A DNA stretch of 64,000 bases. Source: Escherichia coli (GTDB taxonomy: Bacteria > Pseudomonadota > Gammaproteobacteria > Enterobacterales > Enterobacteriaceae). The notes under the pieces were generated by a model. The model made no database searches. It was given only the letters and a program-made list of their open reading frames with translations, and was not told the DNA's origin. The stretch is from NCBI RefSeq assembly GCF_003334355.1, contig NZ_QOWP01000015.1; one strand, given 5' to 3'. The position numbers and the translations under genes were made by a program. Shown here piece after piece: positions 646 through 51,086 of this stretch; the first letter of the stretch is position 1, and each line of letters opens with the position of its first letter.

Positions 646-2097
646 TCATTCACGCCAGAAAGTCGGGGTAAAGAGCACCAGCAATGTAAAGACCTCGAGA
701 CGACCAAACAGCATGTTGGCAATCAGGATCCATTTAGCCACCGGGTTCATACTGGTAAAGTTATCAGCAACCACGCCAAGCCCTGGCCCCAGGTTATTCA
801 ATGTCGCAACAACCGACGCAAAGGCAGAAAAGTCATCCACGCCCGTGGCGATAATCGCCAGCATACTGACAATAAACACCAATGCATAGGCGGAGAAAAA
901 TCCCCAAACGGCTTCGAGGATACGTTCCGGCAGTGCGCGATTCCCCAGCTTAATGCTATAGACGGCGTTCGGATGCACCAGTCGTTTCAGCTCACGGTTC
1001 CCCTGCTTAAACAGCAGCAGGATGCGGATCACCTTCAGGCCACCGCCCGTTGACCCGGCGCAACCGCCGATAAAGGCTGAACATAAAAGCAGTACCGGCA
1101 AAAAGAGCGGCCAGCGGGCAATGCTGTCAGTTGTAAACCCGGCGGTTGTCGCCATCGACACCACCTGGAAAAACGCCTGGTTAATTGTCATCAGCGCCGA
1201 ACTGTAGACATTATGAAACCACAGTACGAGGGTACAAATAACCACCAGCGTAAACTGTACGCCGATAAACATGCGAAATTCCGGATCGCGCCAATAAACC
1301 TTCAGACTACGCCCACTTAACAGTGAAAAGTGCAGACCGTAGTTACAGCCGGAGATCAGCAGGAAGATAGCAATGATAGTGTTAATAGTCGGGCTATCGA
1401 AATAACCGATACTGGCATCATGTGTCGAGAAGCCGCCAATAGCGATAGTCGCAAAGCTATGGCCGATGGCATCAAAGGCATCCATTCCGGCAAACCACAA
1501 CGCCAGCGCACAGGCGACGGTCAGCAAGACATAAATCAACCACAGGGTTTTCGCCGTTTCCGCAATTCGCGGGCGCATTTTGTTATCTTTCAGCGGGCCG
1601 GGCATTTCTGCGCGATAGAGCTGCATCCCACCCACGCCGAGGATAGGCAGTATCGCAACCGCCAACACGATGATCCCCATCCCGCCAAACCATTGCAGCA
1701 TCTGGCGATAAAAGAGGATGGCGTGAGGGAGCGAATCCAGCCCCACCAGCGTAGTGGCTCCCGTAGTGGTCAGGCCAGAGAAAGATTCAAAAAACGCATC
1801 GGTAATCGTGAGGTTCGGGCTTTCCGAGAAGATAAAAGGGAGCGCACCGACGCTACCCAGCACGGTCCAGAACAGCACCACTATCAGAAACCCCTCACGG
1901 GATTTAAGTTCGCCTTTCTCTTTGCGGTTCGGCCACCACAGCATAGAGCCAATGGCGAGGGCGACAAAAAAGGTCTGGGTAAAAGCGCGGCCCGCTCCAT
2001 CCCGGTAGATGAGTGCTACCAGCCCAGGGATAATCATGGTCCCTGAAAATAAGATGACCAGTAGTCCAACGATTCGGGTAATGGCGCGAAAATGCAT
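646..2097 (-). CDS. trkH: Trk system potassium uptake protein TrkH
   Basis: 483-aa polytopic membrane ORF recognised as TrkH; synteny pepQ-yigZ-trkH-hemG. Confidence 0.95.
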   Translation of the reverse strand: MHFRAITRIVGLLVILFSGTMIIPGLVALIYRDGAGRAFTQTFFVALAIGSMLWWPNRKEKGELKSREGFLIVVLFWTVLGSVGALPFIFSESPNLTITDAFFESFSGLTTTGATTLVGLDSLPHAILFYRQMLQWFGGMGIIVLAVAILPILGVGGMQLYRAEMPGPLKDNKMRPRIAETAKTLWLIYVLLTVACALALWFAGMDAFDAIGHSFATIAIGGFSTHDASIGYFDSPTINTIIAIFLLISGCNYGLHFSLLSGRSLKVYWRDPEFRMFIGVQFTLVVICTLVLWFHNVYSSALMTINQAFFQVVSMATTAGFTTDSIARWPLFLPVLLLCSAFIGGCAGSTGGGLKVIRILLLFKQGNRELKRLVHPNAVYSIKLGNRALPERILEAVWGFFSAYALVFIVSMLAIIATGVDDFSAFASVVATLNNLGPGLGVVADNFTSMNPVAKWILIANMLFGRLEVFTLLVLFTPTFWRE

Positions 2098-2753: not shown

Positions 2754-4081
2754 GCCAGTTTCAGATCCCGGGTCATGTTTTCCACGTTGTTTTCGTGGAT
2801 CACCACGTTGTCTTCGATACGAATGCCGCCGAACGGTTTCAGTGCTTCAATTTTCTGCCAGTTGAAGTGCTTGCTGAACTGCCCTTCACGCCACGGTGCC
2901 AGTAGCGATTCGATGAAGTAGATACCCGGTTCGATGGTTAACACCATGCCCGGCTGGAGAATACGGGTGCAGCGCAGGTACGGATATTTTGCCGGTGCCG
3001 CGAGGTGCGTACCGCTATCATCCTGCATAAAACCAGCGACGTCATGCACCTGCAGGCCCAGCGGATGGCCGATACCATGCGGCATAAACGGCCCGGTAAG
3101 ATCGTTTTCGACCATCGCTTCTTCACTCATATCGGTGATGATTTGATGTTTACGCAGCAGTTTGGCGATGCGCTGATGGAACTGGATGTGGTAATCCACA
3201 TAGCTGACGCCTGCTTTCATGGTGGCGATCAGCGCCAGTTGTTCATCATTAACGTCCTTCACCAGCTGCGCGTAGTCGTTGTCACTTTTTGCCGACCAGG
3301 TACGGGTCAGGTCAGCCGCATAGCCGTTATATTCTGCCCCGGCATCCAGCAGGAAGCTGCGCATCTCTTCCGGTGCCTGATGGTCCAGTTTGGTGTAATG
3401 CAGTACCGCAGCGTGTTCGTTAAGCGCCACAATGTTGCTGTAAGGTACGTCGGTATCACGATGACCGGTCGCGGTCAGATAGGCAATGTTGATATCGAAC
3501 TCGCTCATGCCAGAACGGAACGCTTCTTCTGCCGCGCGGTGACCGTTGACCGCCATTTTCTGCGCTTCACGCATACAGGCCAGTTCGTACTCAGTTTTGA
3601 AGGAGCGATAGTAATGCAGGTAGTCGATAACCCCTTTCGGGTTGATGTTGCTGGCCTCAATACCCAGTTGCAGCGCACGTTCCGGCACCGGACCGATATA
3701 ACCGATATTGCCGCGCGCAGCAGGCAGCAGGCTACCAATGCCATCGGCTTTCGGCAGCGCGATCACTTCCACATCTTCAGTCCAGAAAGAGGTCGGCAGC
3801 GGTTCGACGTTGTGCCAGTAATCAACCGGCAGATAGAACCACAGTTTCGGCTTGTTCACGCCATCCACCAGCAACCAGCAGTTTGGCACCTGAGTTACCG
3901 GCACCCACGCTTTGAATTGCGGGTTCACTTTAAACGGATAGGGATGATCGTCGAGAAAAACATTGAACAGCTCGCCGGAGTGAATAAGTAACGCATCCAG
4001 CTTGAAGCGCGCCAGCGCATCGCGAGTCCGTTCTTGTAAGGTAGCTATATGATTTTTATAGAGCGAGGCCAGTGATTCCAT
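2750..4081 (-). CDS. pepQ: Xaa-Pro dipeptidase (prolidase) PepQ
   Basis: 443-aa ORF recognised as PepQ (M24 metallopeptidase, HGIGH motif); divergent from fadB. Confidence 0.95.
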
Positions 4082-7636: not shown

Positions 7637-7822
7637 CTTGCCGGATGCGGCGTGAACGCCTTATCCGGTCTACAGATCCGGCACCAATGTAGGCCTGATA
7701 AGACGCGCCAGCGTCGCATCAGGCATCGTGCACCAATTGCCGGATGCGACGTAAACGCCTTATCCGGCCTACGGTTCGGACTATTTGTAGGCACGATAAG
7801 ACGCGACAGCGTCGCATCGGGC
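7637..7822. repeat. BIME / cluster of REP elements downstream of fadA
   Basis: Several alternating-orientation copies of the REP core (gccggatgcggcgtgaacgccttatccggcctac and its complement) with spacers. Confidence 0.8.
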
Positions 7823-13277: not shown

Positions 13278-15520
<2,243 letters not shown>

Positions 15521-22209: not shown

Positions 22210-23162
22210 TGATCGAAGTAAAACACCTGAAAACGCTACAAGCGTTGCGGAACTGCGGCTCTCTCGCAGCCGCTGCGGCGACGTTGCATCAGACGCAATC
22301 CGCCCTGTCTCACCAGTTTAGCGATCTGGAACAACGCCTTGGCTTCCGGCTATTTGTGCGTAAGAGCCAGCCGCTACGCTTTACACCGCAGGGAGAAATC
22401 CTGTTGCAACTGGCAAACCAGGTGCTGCCGCAAATCAGCCAGGCACTGCAAGCCTGCAATGAACCGCAGCAGACGCGTCTGCGCATTGCCATTGAGTGCC
22501 ATAGCTGTATTCAGTGGCTGACGCCCGCGTTAGAAAATTTCCATAAGAACTGGCCGCAGGTAGAGATGGATTTTAAATCGGGCGTGACGTTTGACCCGCA
22601 GCCCGCGTTGCAACAGGGCGAGCTGGATCTGGTGATGACCTCCGATATCCTGCCGCGCAGTGGCCTGCATTATTCGCCGATGTTCGACTATGAAGTGCGT
22701 CTGGTGTTAGCACCTGACCATCCACTGGCGGCGAAAACGCGAATTACACCGGAAGATCTCGCCAGCGAGACGCTGTTGATTTATCCGGTACAGCGTAGTC
22801 GACTGGATGTCTGGCGGCATTTTCTTCAGCCGGCAGGCGTCAGCCCGTCACTGAAAAGCGTCGATAACACCTTATTGTTGATTCAGATGGTTGCCGCACG
22901 GATGGGTATTGCCGCGCTACCGCATTGGGTAGTAGAGAGTTTTGAGCGCCAGGGTCTGGTGGTGACCAAAACCCTGGGCGAAGGCTTGTGGAGCCGACTG
23001 TACGCCGCCGTGCGCGATGGAGAGCAGCGTCAGCCAGTTACGGAAGCGTTTATTCGCTCAGCGCGCAATCACGCCTGCGATCATCTGCCGTTTGTGAAGA
23101 GCGCGGAGCGACCCACTTACGATGCACCCACAGTGAGGCCAGGATCACCAGCGCGCCTGTAA
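22209..23162 (+). CDS. metR: LysR-family transcriptional regulator MetR
   Basis: 317-aa ORF with N-terminal HTH recognised as MetR. Confidence 0.95.
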
Positions 23163-23949
23163 TGAACGTTGGCCAGTGCGGCTGTTGGTGCCAGATAGCC
23201 AGGTTTACCAGCAGCCCTGCCGGAACGTGCATATTATTCATAATGCCCAGCGTTCCGGCGTCCACCTGCGTCGCGCCGTAGTTCCACATAAAGTAGCCAA
23301 TCCCGGAAGCCACCACGCCAAGAAACACCAGAATGCCCCATTGCAACGTGGTTTGCGGCATTTTCTGCGTATTTCCCAGCAAGAACCATGCAATTACCGC
23401 CACCAGGAACGCGCCAAGATAGAACCACGCAAAGGCGTTATGCTGCGGCATCGGGCGAGTTTCCATCAGGCGTTTGTAACCCACCATGCCGATGGCAAAA
23501 GTGATATTGGAGAGTTGCACCAGCAACAAGCCAGTCCAGAAATGGTCGGTGACCTGATCATAGCGAATAATCCCGGCACCAATCACCGCCAACAAGGCAC
23601 TAAAAGCATATCCCCAGCGCAGACGGCGCTTACTCATGATGTCATAAATCAGCGTGATGTAGAGCGGCGTCAGTACGGTGAACAGCAGCAGTTCGGAAAC
23701 CGTCAGGTAGAGATAAGCGCGGAAACTCAGCATATACATCACGCCGAGCTGCATCGCGCCCACCAGCATATACAGGCCGACTGTTTTCAGGCTATTGCCA
23801 CGGGTACGCAGAAACGGCAGAAAAACGAGTGCCGCCAGGCCAACGCGCACCAGCACCGCAAAATAGCTATCGACGTGCCCCGCAAGGTACTCGCCATAAA
23901 AGCTAAAGGAGAAGGCCCACAGAATCGTGGTGATGATAAGTAGCGCCAC
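23050..23949 (-). CDS. yigM: EamA/DMT-family inner membrane transporter YigM (biotin uptake, BioP)
   Basis: 299-aa polytopic membrane ORF recognised as YigM; 3' end overlaps the metR 3' end convergently. Confidence 0.88.
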
Positions 23950-24024
23950 AATGGAAAACTCTTTGATTAACGGGTATCCATTGTAGCGAAGTATCAGGTT
24001 GACAACTGACCAAATAAAGAACGA

Positions 24025-24825
24025 TTACGATAAATAGAGTTTACGCAGATAATGCGGCACCGCGTCGTCGGCATTAGTACCAATCACTTCCAGCTCGGGA
24101 TGAAGGTCTTTCAGACGCTGGTGCGCACTGCCCATAATGCAGCCTTTCCCCGCCATCGACAGCATTTCGGCGTCGTTCATCCCGTCACCAAACGCAATAC
24201 AATCCTTCAGGCTGTAGCCCAGTTTCTTCGCCACCGCTTCCAGCGCATGGCCTTTTGAAACGCCGCCCGCCATCACTTCCAGACAGGTTAAGGTAGAGAA
24301 ACTGACGTTGACGCGATCGCCCCAACGAGCGTTAATCGCCTGCTCCAGCGGCAGCAGTTGTTCATGGGAATCGCAGGTGAAGAACACTTTGCTGACGCCT
24401 TCCGGCTCCAGTAATCCAGGCTCATACAGCGCATATTGGAACACCGCTTCTTTAAAAAAGCGCATCTCTTCCGGGCGATGGCGATTCATAAACCATTCGT
24501 CGTCGCGATAAACGTTAGTAATGATGTCCGGATTGTCGTTGACTACGCCAAACAGATCGCTGGCAATGTCGCGATCCAGGTTATGAGCAAAAATCAGATT
24601 ACCATCCAGATCGTGAACGCGCGCACCATTGGAGGTAATCATGTAAGACTTAATCTCCAGATTATCGCGAATTTGCCCCACATCAACGTGGTGACGACCG
24701 GTCGCAAACACAAAGTTGATGCCGCGCGCGGTGAGCAGCTTCAGAGTTTCTTTGGCGTAAGGGGATAACGTATGGTCGGGAGAAAGTAACGTGCCATCTA
24801 AATCAGACGCAACAACCTGGTACAT
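24025..24825 (-). CDS. yigL: HAD-superfamily (Cof-type) sugar-phosphate phosphatase YigL
   Basis: Track ORF runs into pldB; recognised 266-aa YigL begins MYQVVASDLDGTLL at ATG 24825, 7 bp below the pldB stop. Confidence 0.9.
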   Translation of the reverse strand: MYQVVASDLDGTLLSPDHTLSPYAKETLKLLTARGINFVFATGRHHVDVGQIRDNLEIKSYMITSNGARVHDLDGNLIFAHNLDRDIASDLFGVVNDNPDIITNVYRDDEWFMNRHRPEEMRFFKEAVFQYALYEPGLLEPEGVSKVFFTCDSHEQLLPLEQAINARWGDRVNVSFSTLTCLEVMAGGVSKGHALEAVAKKLGYSLKDCIAFGDGMNDAEMLSMAGKGCIMGSAHQRLKDLHPELEVIGTNADDAVPHYLRKLYLS

Positions 24826-24832
24826 AAGAAAT

Positions 24833-25855
24833 TTAAACCTCTGTAGAGCGGTTTCCGCTGGGTGAGTTATGCCTGTTGAAAAAATCAACGATGGCGTGGA
24901 GCGCGACTGAGCGCATTGCGTCCTTTTCAAAAAGGATCTCATGGTAAGCACCTTTAATTACCAACGGCCGTCCTCCTTCGACAGGATGGCCCGCGGCGGT
25001 GCGGAGTTCACAAAAACGGTCATGCATGCGGTTATCCACCACGCGTTCCTCTTCAGCCTGCAAGAGAAGCGTTGGCGTGGCGTCATCACCCGCACCGGCT
25101 AACACCTGTTCGCCAGCCAGAATACTTTCGCGTACCCAATGGTAGGTCGGCCCACCGACGCGAATCGTTGGGTCATCAGCATAGAAGCGTAAGTTACGTC
25201 GATATCGCTGTCTGCTGTGGGTCAGTACGTTGATAGCAAACGGCAACGCGCGCCAGCGCCCGGTGCCTATTGCATAGCCATCACGGAAACGTGGATGCGC
25301 TTCGGCCCAGTTGAGGATCTGCCGTGCCATAAATGACGGCATACGAATCACGATCCCAAACATTGGCGCAGTTAGCGCAATGGCGTCACATACACCTGGA
25401 TGGCGTTGCAGAAATAATGTGGAGATCGCACCGCCCATCGAATGTGCCAGTATATAGCGTTTACGCCACGGACCGGGCTGAACCTCCTGCTGCCAGAATG
25501 CCGCCAGATCATCAACATAATCATTAAAGCGATTAACATGCCCGAGATGCGGATCGGCTAACAGGCGACCGGAACGTCCCTGCCCGCGATGGTCGATGAT
25601 TAAGACATCAAACCCCAAATGGAACAGGTCGTAGGCCAGTTCCGCATATTTTACGTAGCTCTCAATACGCCCCGGGCAGATGACTACCACCCGGTCATGG
25701 TGCTGTGCGCGAAAACGGACAAAGCGCACCGGAATGTCATCCACACCAGTAAACTCTGCTTCATCACGCTGACGCCAGAAATCAGTCAGCGGTCCCAGGG
25801 TAAAAGCAGCAAACGCGTTTTCTCTTGTTTCCCAGTCTTTTTGCTGCTGAAACAT
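24833..25855 (-). CDS. pldB: Lysophospholipase L2
   Basis: 340-aa alpha/beta hydrolase ORF (HSMGG motif) recognised as PldB. Confidence 0.93.
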   Translation of the reverse strand: MFQQQKDWETRENAFAAFTLGPLTDFWRQRDEAEFTGVDDIPVRFVRFRAQHHDRVVVICPGRIESYVKYAELAYDLFHLGFDVLIIDHRGQGRSGRLLADPHLGHVNRFNDYVDDLAAFWQQEVQPGPWRKRYILAHSMGGAISTLFLQRHPGVCDAIALTAPMFGIVIRMPSFMARQILNWAEAHPRFRDGYAIGTGRWRALPFAINVLTHSRQRYRRNLRFYADDPTIRVGGPTYHWVRESILAGEQVLAGAGDDATPTLLLQAEEERVVDNRMHDRFCELRTAAGHPVEGGRPLVIKGAYHEILFEKDAMRSVALHAIVDFFNRHNSPSGNRSTEV

Positions 25856-25965
25856 CGGGTAATCTGCCTCTTAAACCACGTAAAATCGTTTTTTTTAGCG
25901 TGCCTGACACAACGCTGCGACAGTAGCGTATTGTGGCACAAAAATAGACACACCGGGAGTTCATC

Positions 25966-26586
25966 ATGACCTTAGAATGGTGGTTTGCCTACCTGCTGAC
26001 ATCGATCATTTTAAGCCTGTCGCCAGGCTCTGGTGCAATCAACACTATGACCACCTCGCTCAACCACGGTTATCGCGGCGCGGTGGCGTCTATTGCTGGG
26101 CTTCAGACCGGACTGGCGATTCATATTGTGCTGGTTGGCGTGGGGTTGGGGACGCTATTTTCCCGCTCAGTGATTGCGTTTGAAGTGTTGAAGTGGGCAG
26201 GCGCGGCTTACTTGATTTGGCTGGGAATCCAGCAGTGGCGCGCCGCTGGTGCAATTGACCTTAAATCGCTGGCCTCTACTCAATCGCGTCGACATTTGTT
26301 CCAGCGCGCAGTTTTTGTGAATCTCACCAATCCCAAAAGTATTGTGTTTCTGGCGGCGCTATTTCCGCAATTCATCATGCCACAGCAGCCGCAACTGATG
26401 CAGTATATCGTGCTCGGCGTCACCACTATTGTAGTCGATATTATTGTGATGATCGGTTACGCCACCCTTGCTCAACGGATTGCTCTATGGATTAAAGGAC
26501 CAAAGCAGATGAAGGCGCTGAATAAGATTTTCGGCTCGTTGTTTATGCTGGTGGGAGCGCTGTTAGCATCGGCGAGGCATGCGTGA
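25966..26586 (+). CDS. rhtB: Homoserine/homoserine lactone efflux protein RhtB (LysE family)
   Basis: 206-aa membrane ORF recognised as RhtB. Confidence 0.93.
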
Positions 26587-48391: not shown

Positions 48392-48598
48392 AAAAAAACG
48401 CCTGCTCTTATTACGGAGCAGGCGTTAAAACAGGTCTGTATGACAACAAGTGGGTGCTTCACTCAACGTTGTGTCCATGGTGTCTGATGAGGCATAAGCG
48501 ACATCTGTCAGTGGACGATAAGCACCGTAAACGGCTCTGCGTCATTCCGGAGTTTATGAGGCACTAAGGCGAACATAAGAGATGGAATGAGCATCTAC
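48392..48598 (-). ncRNA. glmZ: GlmZ small RNA (SraJ/RyiA), glmS activator
   Basis: Minus-strand transcript beginning GUAGAUGCUCAUUCCAUCUCUUAUGUUCGCC and ending in hairpin AACGCCUGCUC-CGUAAUAA-GAGCAGGCGUU plus U7; location (hemY/aslA intergenic) and about 207-nt length fit GlmZ; ends +/-2. Confidence 0.8.
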
Positions 48599-50649: not shown

Positions 50650-50726
50650 TGGTCGGCGAGAGAGGATTCGAACCTCCGACCCACTGGTCCCAAACCAGTT
50701 GCGCTACCAAGCTGCGCTACTCGCCG
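50650..50726 (-). tRNA. proM: tRNA-Pro (anticodon UGG)
   Basis: rc reads CGGCGAGTAGCGCAGCTTGGTAGCGCAACTGGTTTGGGACCAGTGGGTCGGAGGTTCGAATCCTCTCTCGCCGACCA; cloverleaf with TTTGGGA anticodon loop; encoded CCA; ends +/-1. Confidence 0.93.
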
Positions 50727-50768
50727 AAATACTGCTTTTTGAATTTTTAGTTCAATTCTTTAAAGTCG

Positions 50769-50855
50769 TGGTGCGAGGGGGGGGACTTGAACCCCCACGT
50801 CCGTAAGGACACTAACACCTGAAGCTAGCGCGTCTACCAATTCCGCCACCTTCGC
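50769..50855 (-). tRNA. leuT: tRNA-Leu (anticodon CAG)
   Basis: rc reads GCGAAGGTGGCGGAATTGGTAGACGCGCTAGCTTCAGGTG...CTCGCACCA; 87 nt with long variable arm; ends +/-1. Confidence 0.93.
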
Positions 50856-50875
50856 ATTGTCACAACTTCTAATAA

Positions 50876-50952
50876 TGGGGTGGCTAATGGGATTCGAACC
50901 CACGACAACTGGAATCACAATCCAGGGCTCTACCAACTGAGCTATAGCCACC
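50876..50952 (-). tRNA. hisR: tRNA-His (anticodon GUG)
   Basis: rc reads GGTGGCTATAGCTCAGTTGGTAGAGCCCTGGATTGTGATTCCAG...CCACCCCA with the His-specific extra 5' G; ends +/-1. Confidence 0.93.
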
Positions 50953-51009
50953 ACTACAAATCTTGTTACGCGGTATTACTACCACCGCAGCTCAAGCGCC
51001 GGGACTAAA

Positions 51010-51086
<77 letters not shown>

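Follow-up and report, generated by a model that had tools for sequence, protein, structure and literature searches.

The window analysed here, a 64-kb stretch (64,000 nucleotides) of the Escherichia coli chromosome, contains the neighbouring genes pldB and yigL, which encode lysophospholipase L2 and a HAD-type sugar phosphatase, respectively (Table 1). The locus is an instance of the published system in which the small RNA (sRNA) SgrS activates yigL via a 'pldB–yigL mRNA, as described for Salmonella and E. coli (Papenfort, Sun, Miyakoshi, Vanderpool and Vogel, Cell 2013). An E. coli pldB–yigL operon with this post-transcriptional SgrS switch is very probably the best explanation of the evidence presented below. 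The preliminary description of the window had proposed that the 3′ coding sequence of pldB doubles as regulatory RNA. This observation is correct and already known; it corresponds to the published SgrS mechanism, whose pairing site the window contains. Over 2.1 kb centred on the pldB–yigL junction, the sequence is 100% identical to several complete genomes, and the pldB–yigL region was found in 5426 of 5426 complete E. coli genomes.

In the published system, pldB and yigL are co-transcribed and the dicistronic mRNA is processed by RNase E, which cuts inside pldB and yields a 'pldB–yigL RNA that is then further degraded (PMC4021124, PMC4098024). By base-pairing with this processed RNA, SgrS blocks access to an RNase E site, so that the yigL mRNA is stabilised in a translation-independent manner; the initial processing is required to clear ribosomes from the pldB segment (PMC4021124, PMC4098024). 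SgrS binds pldB +935–955 and the RNase E cleavage site lies at +948–955; in vivo crosslinks of RNase E in pathogenic E. coli map immediately 5′ of the cleavage site as well as across the SgrS site (PMC5286369). A preprint on the SgrS target hierarchy (Bobrovskyy) used an in vitro yigL RNA spanning −191 to +50, reported that Hfq binds yigL RNA, and ranked yigL as a high-priority SgrS target in vivo (bioRxiv 10.1101/221978).

Applied to the window, this literature suggests that yigL, for which the 7-nt gap provides no promoter, would be transcribed together with pldB. RNase E would then cut the dicistronic mRNA within pldB, freeing the pldB 3′ segment from ribosomes and exposing the remaining 'pldB–yigL RNA to further degradation. 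During sugar-phosphate stress, Hfq-dependent SgrS produced from another part of the genome would pair with +935–955 and cover the RNase E site at +948–955. The stabilised yigL message would give more YigL phosphatase, independently of translation control. The proposal in the preliminary description that yigL is expressed from the pldB transcript is thus supported by the published dicistronic, RNase E-processed mRNA.

The SgrS pairing site and codon constraint in pldB

For the analysis of SgrS complementarity, we used the SgrS sequence of E. coli K-12, which was confirmed as Rfam RF00534. An Rfam scan found no sgrS in the 64-kb window; in K-12 the gene is annotated at 77367–77593 and matches RF00534. 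RNAduplex paired SgrS nucleotides 168–179 (GUGUGACUGAGU) with pldB +944–955 (GCUCAGUCGCGC) through 12 contiguous base pairs, three of them G·U, and SgrS 184–187 with the ACGC at +935–938 through four more, giving a total ΔG of −23.8 kcal/mol for the duplex. This pairing reproduces the published interval +935–955. Two SgrS residues on which ptsG regulation critically depends, G176 and G178, pair here with pldB C947 and C945. The site lies 69–89 nt upstream of the pldB stop codon and hence outside 24820–24840, the junction interval in which the preliminary description had located the regulatory region.

Synonymous constraint was evaluated in codon alignments of pldB and yigL from 77 Enterobacteriaceae sequences that were mutually less than 97% identical, and expressed as the ratio of observed to expected synonymous codon differences over 76 minimum-spanning-tree pairs. 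The strongest constraint in either gene was found at pldB codons 304–318 (ratio 0.27), and at every window size the lowest window of both genes fell in the pldB 3′ end. For comparison, 15-codon windows in the gene bodies (n = 499) ranged from 0.70 to 1.37, and the translation-start regions reached 0.39 in pldB and about 0.5 in yigL, with a ratio of 0.38 over the first 12 codons of yigL. Nearly invariant codons form the runs TAC CAT GAG ATC CTT ... GAA AAG GAC and CGC TCA GTC GCG. Codons 309, 313 and 319 vary freely, the last of these marking the 3′ edge of the duplex.

Variation within the four core codons follows the pairing with SgrS. Of 303 synonymous choices, 302 were pair-permitted (CGY, TCR, GTY, GCR), compared with a joint background of 0.044 elsewhere in the genes, and all 12 pairs with the E. 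coli SgrS seed were kept in 72 of the 77 sequences. Divergent targets occur in Intestinirhabdus (L042), Siccibacter (L070 and L080), Leclercia (L026) and Kluyvera (L079). Within E. coli, the 52 nt from 24946 to 24895 were identical in 5089 of 5425 genomes. An O157:H7 strain carries two changes in the site, C951U and C955U, each a C-to-U exchange opposite a G that retains pairing. The core variants obey RNA pairing rules, which speaks for a constraint at the RNA level rather than one imposed by a DNA motif or by the protein. Codon choice in pldB, and probably two amino acids of PldB, thus bear the visible mark of the regulatory RNA function. SgrS complementarity and elevated synonymous conservation, whose joint absence from the pldB 3′ end the preliminary description had named as grounds for abandoning its proposal, are therefore both present.

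Several results weigh against this interpretation or limit it. The mechanism outlined above follows reviews and later studies, which are secondary descriptions of Papenfort et al. (2013), and binding between SgrS and yigL in vitro was barely detectable (bioRxiv 10.1101/221978). A 12-mer complement tolerating G·U pairs was not enriched in the window (two found, 4.05 expected), and a scan of the window with the 34-nt SgrS pairing region returned many chance sites at about −31 to −33 kcal/mol, compared with −25.6 kcal/mol for the true site. The strongest constraint also continues for about 25 nt beyond the 5′ edge of the pairing site, into a region that SgrS touches only at +935–938. In eight more distant Enterobacterales that lack the site (see below), the lowest pldB windows are still codons 303–317 (ratio 0.54) and 306–314 (0.41). 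As this constraint persists without an SgrS site, SgrS pairing does not explain all of the conservation. Complementarity or hybridisation energy alone does not discriminate the true site, and conservation is decisive. When the whole of SgrS was matched to the 2-kb mRNA, RNAduplex returned an 'interaction' of 480 nt that carries no meaning.

A conserved block on the 5′ side of the site

A nearly invariant 27-nt block (Table 1) adjoins the SgrS site on its 5′ side. It contains an invariant GATC and a Shine–Dalgarno (SD)-like AAGGA (+931–935) that lies 4 nt before the in-frame AUG314 (+940–942). To follow the block and the site beyond the aligned species, we added ten more distant pldB–yigL loci, obtained by protein search and exact-match contig look-ups. 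The full SgrS site is present in two of these lineages (PldB identity 69–71%), and no seed complement was found in the coding region of the other eight (Serratia, Mixta, Pantoea, Paramixta, Shimwellia, an 'Erwinia' sp., Buttiauxella and one more). PldB residues 316–317 in the eight site-less species read AE, AA, AG, AK or TE rather than SV.

Since the block is constrained in the eight site-less species as well, this constraint does not depend on SgrS pairing, and the block is probably the older of the two. It is possible, although we would not favour it, that the block represents a separate, older cis-acting element of the yigL leader, next to which the SgrS site was grafted later, with the Erwiniaceae site acquired independently. 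The later graft would then have changed PldB residues 316–317 from Ala-Glu-like to Ser-Val. Possible functions of such a block include a docking hairpin for Hfq or RNase E, or an internal ribosome-loading site. Docking of Hfq or RNase E would fit the crosslinking data and the combination of weak in vitro with strong in vivo regulation; the block could mark the Hfq/RNase E determinant that makes a weak in vitro binder a high-priority target in vivo.

Selection for translational accuracy or preferred codons was considered for the block and rejected. At least five of its nine codons are non-preferred: CAT, GAG, CTT, TTT and AAG all count as such in standard E. coli codon-preference tables. Windows over pldB codons 126–150, including AHSMGG, which we take to be the serine-nucleophile motif of PldB, showed no constraint (1.27–1.30).

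In the three Erwiniaceae among the site-less species (Mixta, Pantoea and Paramixta), the motif (U/C)ACUCAGA stands directly after the pldB stop codon. It can pair with (u)CUGAGUA, the SgrS core conserved in Rfam, and may therefore represent an SgrS site that was relocated or that arose independently. If so, Erwiniaceae SgrS would read UCUGAGUA opposite the spacer sequence UACUCAGA.

RNAalifold proposed four helices around the SgrS site (Table 1), one of which would place the CUCAGU of the site in its loop. These helices are tentative hypotheses: 97.5% of helix cells are paired in the alignment, with little independent covariation and with the helices derived from that same alignment. A single compensatory change, U-A to C-G, was found in two Phytobacter-like sequences, at the cost of K311E. 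The predicted hairpin 3′ of the site is partly forced by D-F-F codons and the evidence for it is weak; its pair 99–109 occurs as CG in 34 sequences, UA in 17 and UG in 11, and is unpaired in 15. A single-sequence fold of the −191 to +50 RNA was no more stable than shuffled sequences (z = −1.34), and we therefore claim no overall leader structure.

The pldB–yigL junction and the 5′ end of the yigL RNA

The start of yigL 7 bp past the pldB stop, reported in the preliminary description, is borne out by the coordinates and by RefSeq, in which both an identical E. coli genome and K-12 are annotated with the same gap. The junction mRNA reads ...ACA GAG GUU UAA AUUUCUU AUG UAC..., so that the yigL SD sequence falls within the last two sense codons of pldB. 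The two genes are co-oriented in the window, and in each of the 91 loci examined they are neighbours. A short gap within an operon is in itself not statistically unusual. A 435-amino-acid protein in NCBI (P0028), with 100% identity to PldB, combines PldB and HAD phosphatase domains; it resembles a PldB–YigL fusion call, plausibly because a frameshift or the loss of the stop bridged the 7-nt gap.

To compare junctions, we collected 80 pldB loci from different Enterobacteriaceae species, giving 81 loci with the window. A gap of 7 nt occurs only in six Escherichia sequences, window included, and the 75 other loci have gaps of 8–192 nt. These measure 8 nt in three Citrobacter (amalonaticus, sedlakii), 14–15 nt in other Citrobacter, Salmonella arizonae and some Raoultella, 21–52 nt in most Enterobacter, Klebsiella, Kosakonia, Lelliottia and others, and 66–192 nt in five loci that carry inserted palindromic elements. 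The motif AGAGGTTnAAnTTTyyTATG, comprising the yigL SD sequence and spacer, recurs with minor variation in nearly all 81 loci.

PldB of most relatives has 330 amino acids and ends in ...HN-stop. In E. coli, a 10-codon C-terminal extension (SPSGNRSTEV), which corresponds to spacer in most relatives, reads past this stop into the yigL ribosome-binding site. The pldB stop is labile across Enterobacteriaceae, with PldB lengths of 330, 338 and 340 amino acids in the loci examined. The 7-nt gap is incidental, the Escherichia pldB stop having shifted downstream through the old spacer. As the lineage-specific result of a migrating stop, the spacing is not a conserved coupling device, and with the published regulation acting on yigL alone, the term 'tightly coupled pair' used in the preliminary description was overstated.

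The palindromes that widen the spacer to 66–192 nt are similar to repetitive extragenic palindromic (REP) elements and do not displace the conserved yigL SD segment. They were seen in Raoultella terrigena and Enterobacter sp. 10-1 (loci L049 and L050, ~3494–3685 in locus coordinates), in a metagenome-assembled genome (L033, 3494–3613) and in Enterobacter sp. JUb54 (L066, 3494–3559).

The preliminary description had also suggested a search for RNase E-type sites in the pldB 3′ part, and an RNase E-like GUUUU motif is indeed found at −190/−191 from the yigL start. The −191 position falls in CCG|UUUUUG, which fits the RNase E preference R-N|W-U-U known from cleavage-site mapping, and −191 is probably the 5′ end of the processed 'pldB–yigL message. 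It is the start of the in vitro yigL RNA of the preprint (bioRxiv 10.1101/221978). In the 77 aligned sequences, the position of the GUUUU motif showed no synonymous constraint. A promoter scan of 23900–26100 detected no sigma-70-like site on the coding strand, and no promoter-like or terminator-like site was found on that strand at the junction, in agreement with the earlier remark that the 7-bp gap leaves no room for a promoter.

Alternative readings and related systems

The geometry of the junction, with a gap of 7 nt and the yigL SD sequence GAGG inside pldB codons 339–340, would permit termination at the pldB UAA and reinitiation at the yigL AUG in E. coli, and translational coupling of this kind could be taken as the function of the junction. 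We consider this unlikely. A stop and a start within a few nucleotides would be expected to keep their spacing among relatives, yet this spacing is restricted to Escherichia and varies elsewhere, and it is the segment from SD to AUG that is conserved. Furthermore, the published regulation is yigL-specific and translation-independent (PMC4021124), and the SgrS-responsive RNA does not contain the pldB start codon. The chances are poorer still that yigL expression comes mainly from a promoter, sigma-54-dependent or other, within the 3′ coding part of pldB, and that the constraint reflects promoter DNA. A genomic SELEX (systematic evolution of ligands by exponential enrichment) screen did assign an RpoN-holoenzyme peak to the pldB>yigL junction, at about yigL +26 when computed in K-12 coordinates, and the only coding-strand TGG-N9-TGC near the junction (25038..25024) has its GC 8–12 nt upstream of −191 (25016). 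However, this motif (TGGATA/ATGCA) is a poor match to TGGCAC-N5-TTGCW, lies about 225 bp from the centre of the SELEX peak and on the 5′ side of the constrained block, about 70 nt away from it, and requires Val273 to be GTG for its GG, which is the case in 53 of 77 species and without synonymous constraint; its TGC is destroyed in an O157:H7 strain. No conserved TGGCAC-N5-TTGCW was thus found that keeps its GG and GC invariant and stands at the right distance upstream of the RNA 5′ end, nor was a sigma-70-like site found on the coding strand. The core variants exchange purine for purine opposite U and pyrimidine for pyrimidine opposite G, which a DNA motif would not predict, and the short RNA has been described as an RNase E product (PMC4021124, PMC4098024).

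Two further readings concern the constrained codons themselves. The conserved block could be an internal ribosome-loading site, in which AAGGA and AUG314 would direct translation of the last 17–27 pldB codons toward yigL on the processed RNA. The SgrS site, comprising the SD–AUG spacer and codons 2–5, would then match a classical sRNA-targeted translation-initiation region. Consistent with this, 74 of 75 cases encode Lys311 by AAG, a minor codon, ATG314 hardly varies, the sole freely variable codon of the block, 313, falls in the SD–AUG spacer, and AAG-GAC-NNN-ATG is kept in four site-less species (Shimwellia, Buttiauxella, P0112 and 'Erwinia' CPCC). We nonetheless see little likelihood in this purely sequence-based idea: codon 311 is AAA, AGA or CGG in Erwiniaceae and Serratia, the constraint on codons 304–308 is left unexplained, and activation is reported to be translation-independent, with the region ribosome-free after processing (PMC4021124). 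A scarcely credible source of the constraint at codons 304–330 is an overlapping +1-frame open reading frame (ORF) that starts at AUG +914 (MRSFLKRT.CAQSR...) and runs in frame into E. coli yigL. Of the 77 sequences, 73 have this AUG; in E. coli and 22 other species of the 77, no stop interrupts the +1 frame before yigL; and pldB third positions are second positions of this frame. We rejected this ORF since neither its length, its frame relative to yigL nor its sequence is conserved: it spans 12–305 codons, most species have it in a different frame from yigL, in the Klebsiella/Raoultella group it ends directly behind the SgrS site, and the free pldB codons 313 and 319 entail radical +1-frame changes (Q/P/L and S/F/Y/C).

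The SgrS switch, which we favour over these readings, agrees with the system of Papenfort et al. (2013) in genes, organism group, site (pldB +935–955) and SgrS seed (nt 168–187), and shows no substantial difference from it as that system is known from secondary sources. SgrS–yigL is a textbook case of sRNA activation by blocking RNase E within the coding sequence (CDS) of an upstream cistron, and its recurrence here tells us nothing new about the biology. What the analysis contributes is modest and concerns evolution, namely the quantified synonymous-constraint profile, the lineage-specific gap, the site-independent 5′ constraint and the restriction of the coding-region site to a subset of Enterobacteriaceae. 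A related mechanism is RydC–cfa (Frohlich et al., EMBO J 2013, as cited in PMC4021124), in which an Hfq-dependent sRNA likewise masks an RNase E site in a translation-independent manner. RydC pairs in the 5′ untranslated region of a promoter-specific isoform, whereas SgrS pairs inside the CDS of the upstream cistron after processing. MicC–ompD shares with SgrS–yigL the pairing within an ORF and the action via RNase E rather than the ribosome-binding site; however, MicC promotes cleavage and represses its target, while SgrS blocks cleavage and activates the downstream gene.

Table 1. Coordinates of the features discussed in the text. Positions refer to the window unless a pldB coordinate or another locus is named.
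Feature	Position	Strand	Basis
pldB CDS, lysophospholipase L2, 340 amino acids	25855..24833, stop TAA 24835-24833	minus	ORF list, translation, RefSeq annotation of identical genome
RNase E-like GUUUU, at -191 from yigL ATG (window 25016, pldB +840)	25013..25017	minus	motif scan
Nearly invariant 27-nt block UACCAUGAGAUCCUUUUUGAAAAGGAC, pldB +910..+936, codons 304-312	24946-24920	minus	per-codon counts, alignment
SgrS pairing site, pldB +935..+955	24921-24901	minus	literature coordinates, RNAduplex, conservation
Possible hairpin UCCUUU/AAAGGA, inside conserved block	pldB +920-925 with +930-935		RNAalifold
Possible 4-bp hairpin with CUCAGU of SgrS site in loop	pldB +941-944 with +951-954		RNAalifold
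Tentative hairpin GUUGA-UUUUU-UCAAC, 3′ of SgrS site, pldB +967..+981	24889..24875	minus	RNAalifold, pair counts
Possible closing stem			RNAalifold (fourth helix)
E. coli pldB 10-codon C-terminal extension SPSGNRSTEV	24865-24836	minus	junction comparison; spacer in most relatives
yigL Shine–Dalgarno GAGG, pldB codons 339-340	24841-24838	minus	junction sequences, 81 loci
pldB–yigL spacer, 7 nt, mRNA AUUUCUU	24832..24826	minus	sequence and RefSeq
yigL CDS, HAD-type sugar phosphatase, 266 amino acids, begins MYQVVASDLDGT	24825..24025, ATG 24825-24823	minus	ORF list, translation, RefSeq
Mixta pldB–yigL spacer	locus L084, 2494-2541
Pantoea pldB–yigL spacer	locus L088, 2194-2259
Paramixta pldB–yigL spacer	locus L089, 2197-2276
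Erse sRNA	14915-15166	minus	Rfam
GlmZ	48392-48598	minus	Rfam
naRNA4	7692-7769	minus	Rfam
Cluster of four tRNA genes	50653-51086	minus	Rfam

Elsewhere in the window, Rfam matches at the gathering threshold were obtained for the Erse sRNA, GlmZ, naRNA4 and a cluster of four tRNA genes (Table 1). The genes bioP (minus strand) and metR (plus strand) are convergent, and the 3′ ends of their coding sequences overlap by 113 nt at 23050–23162, as they do in the K-12 RefSeq annotation.

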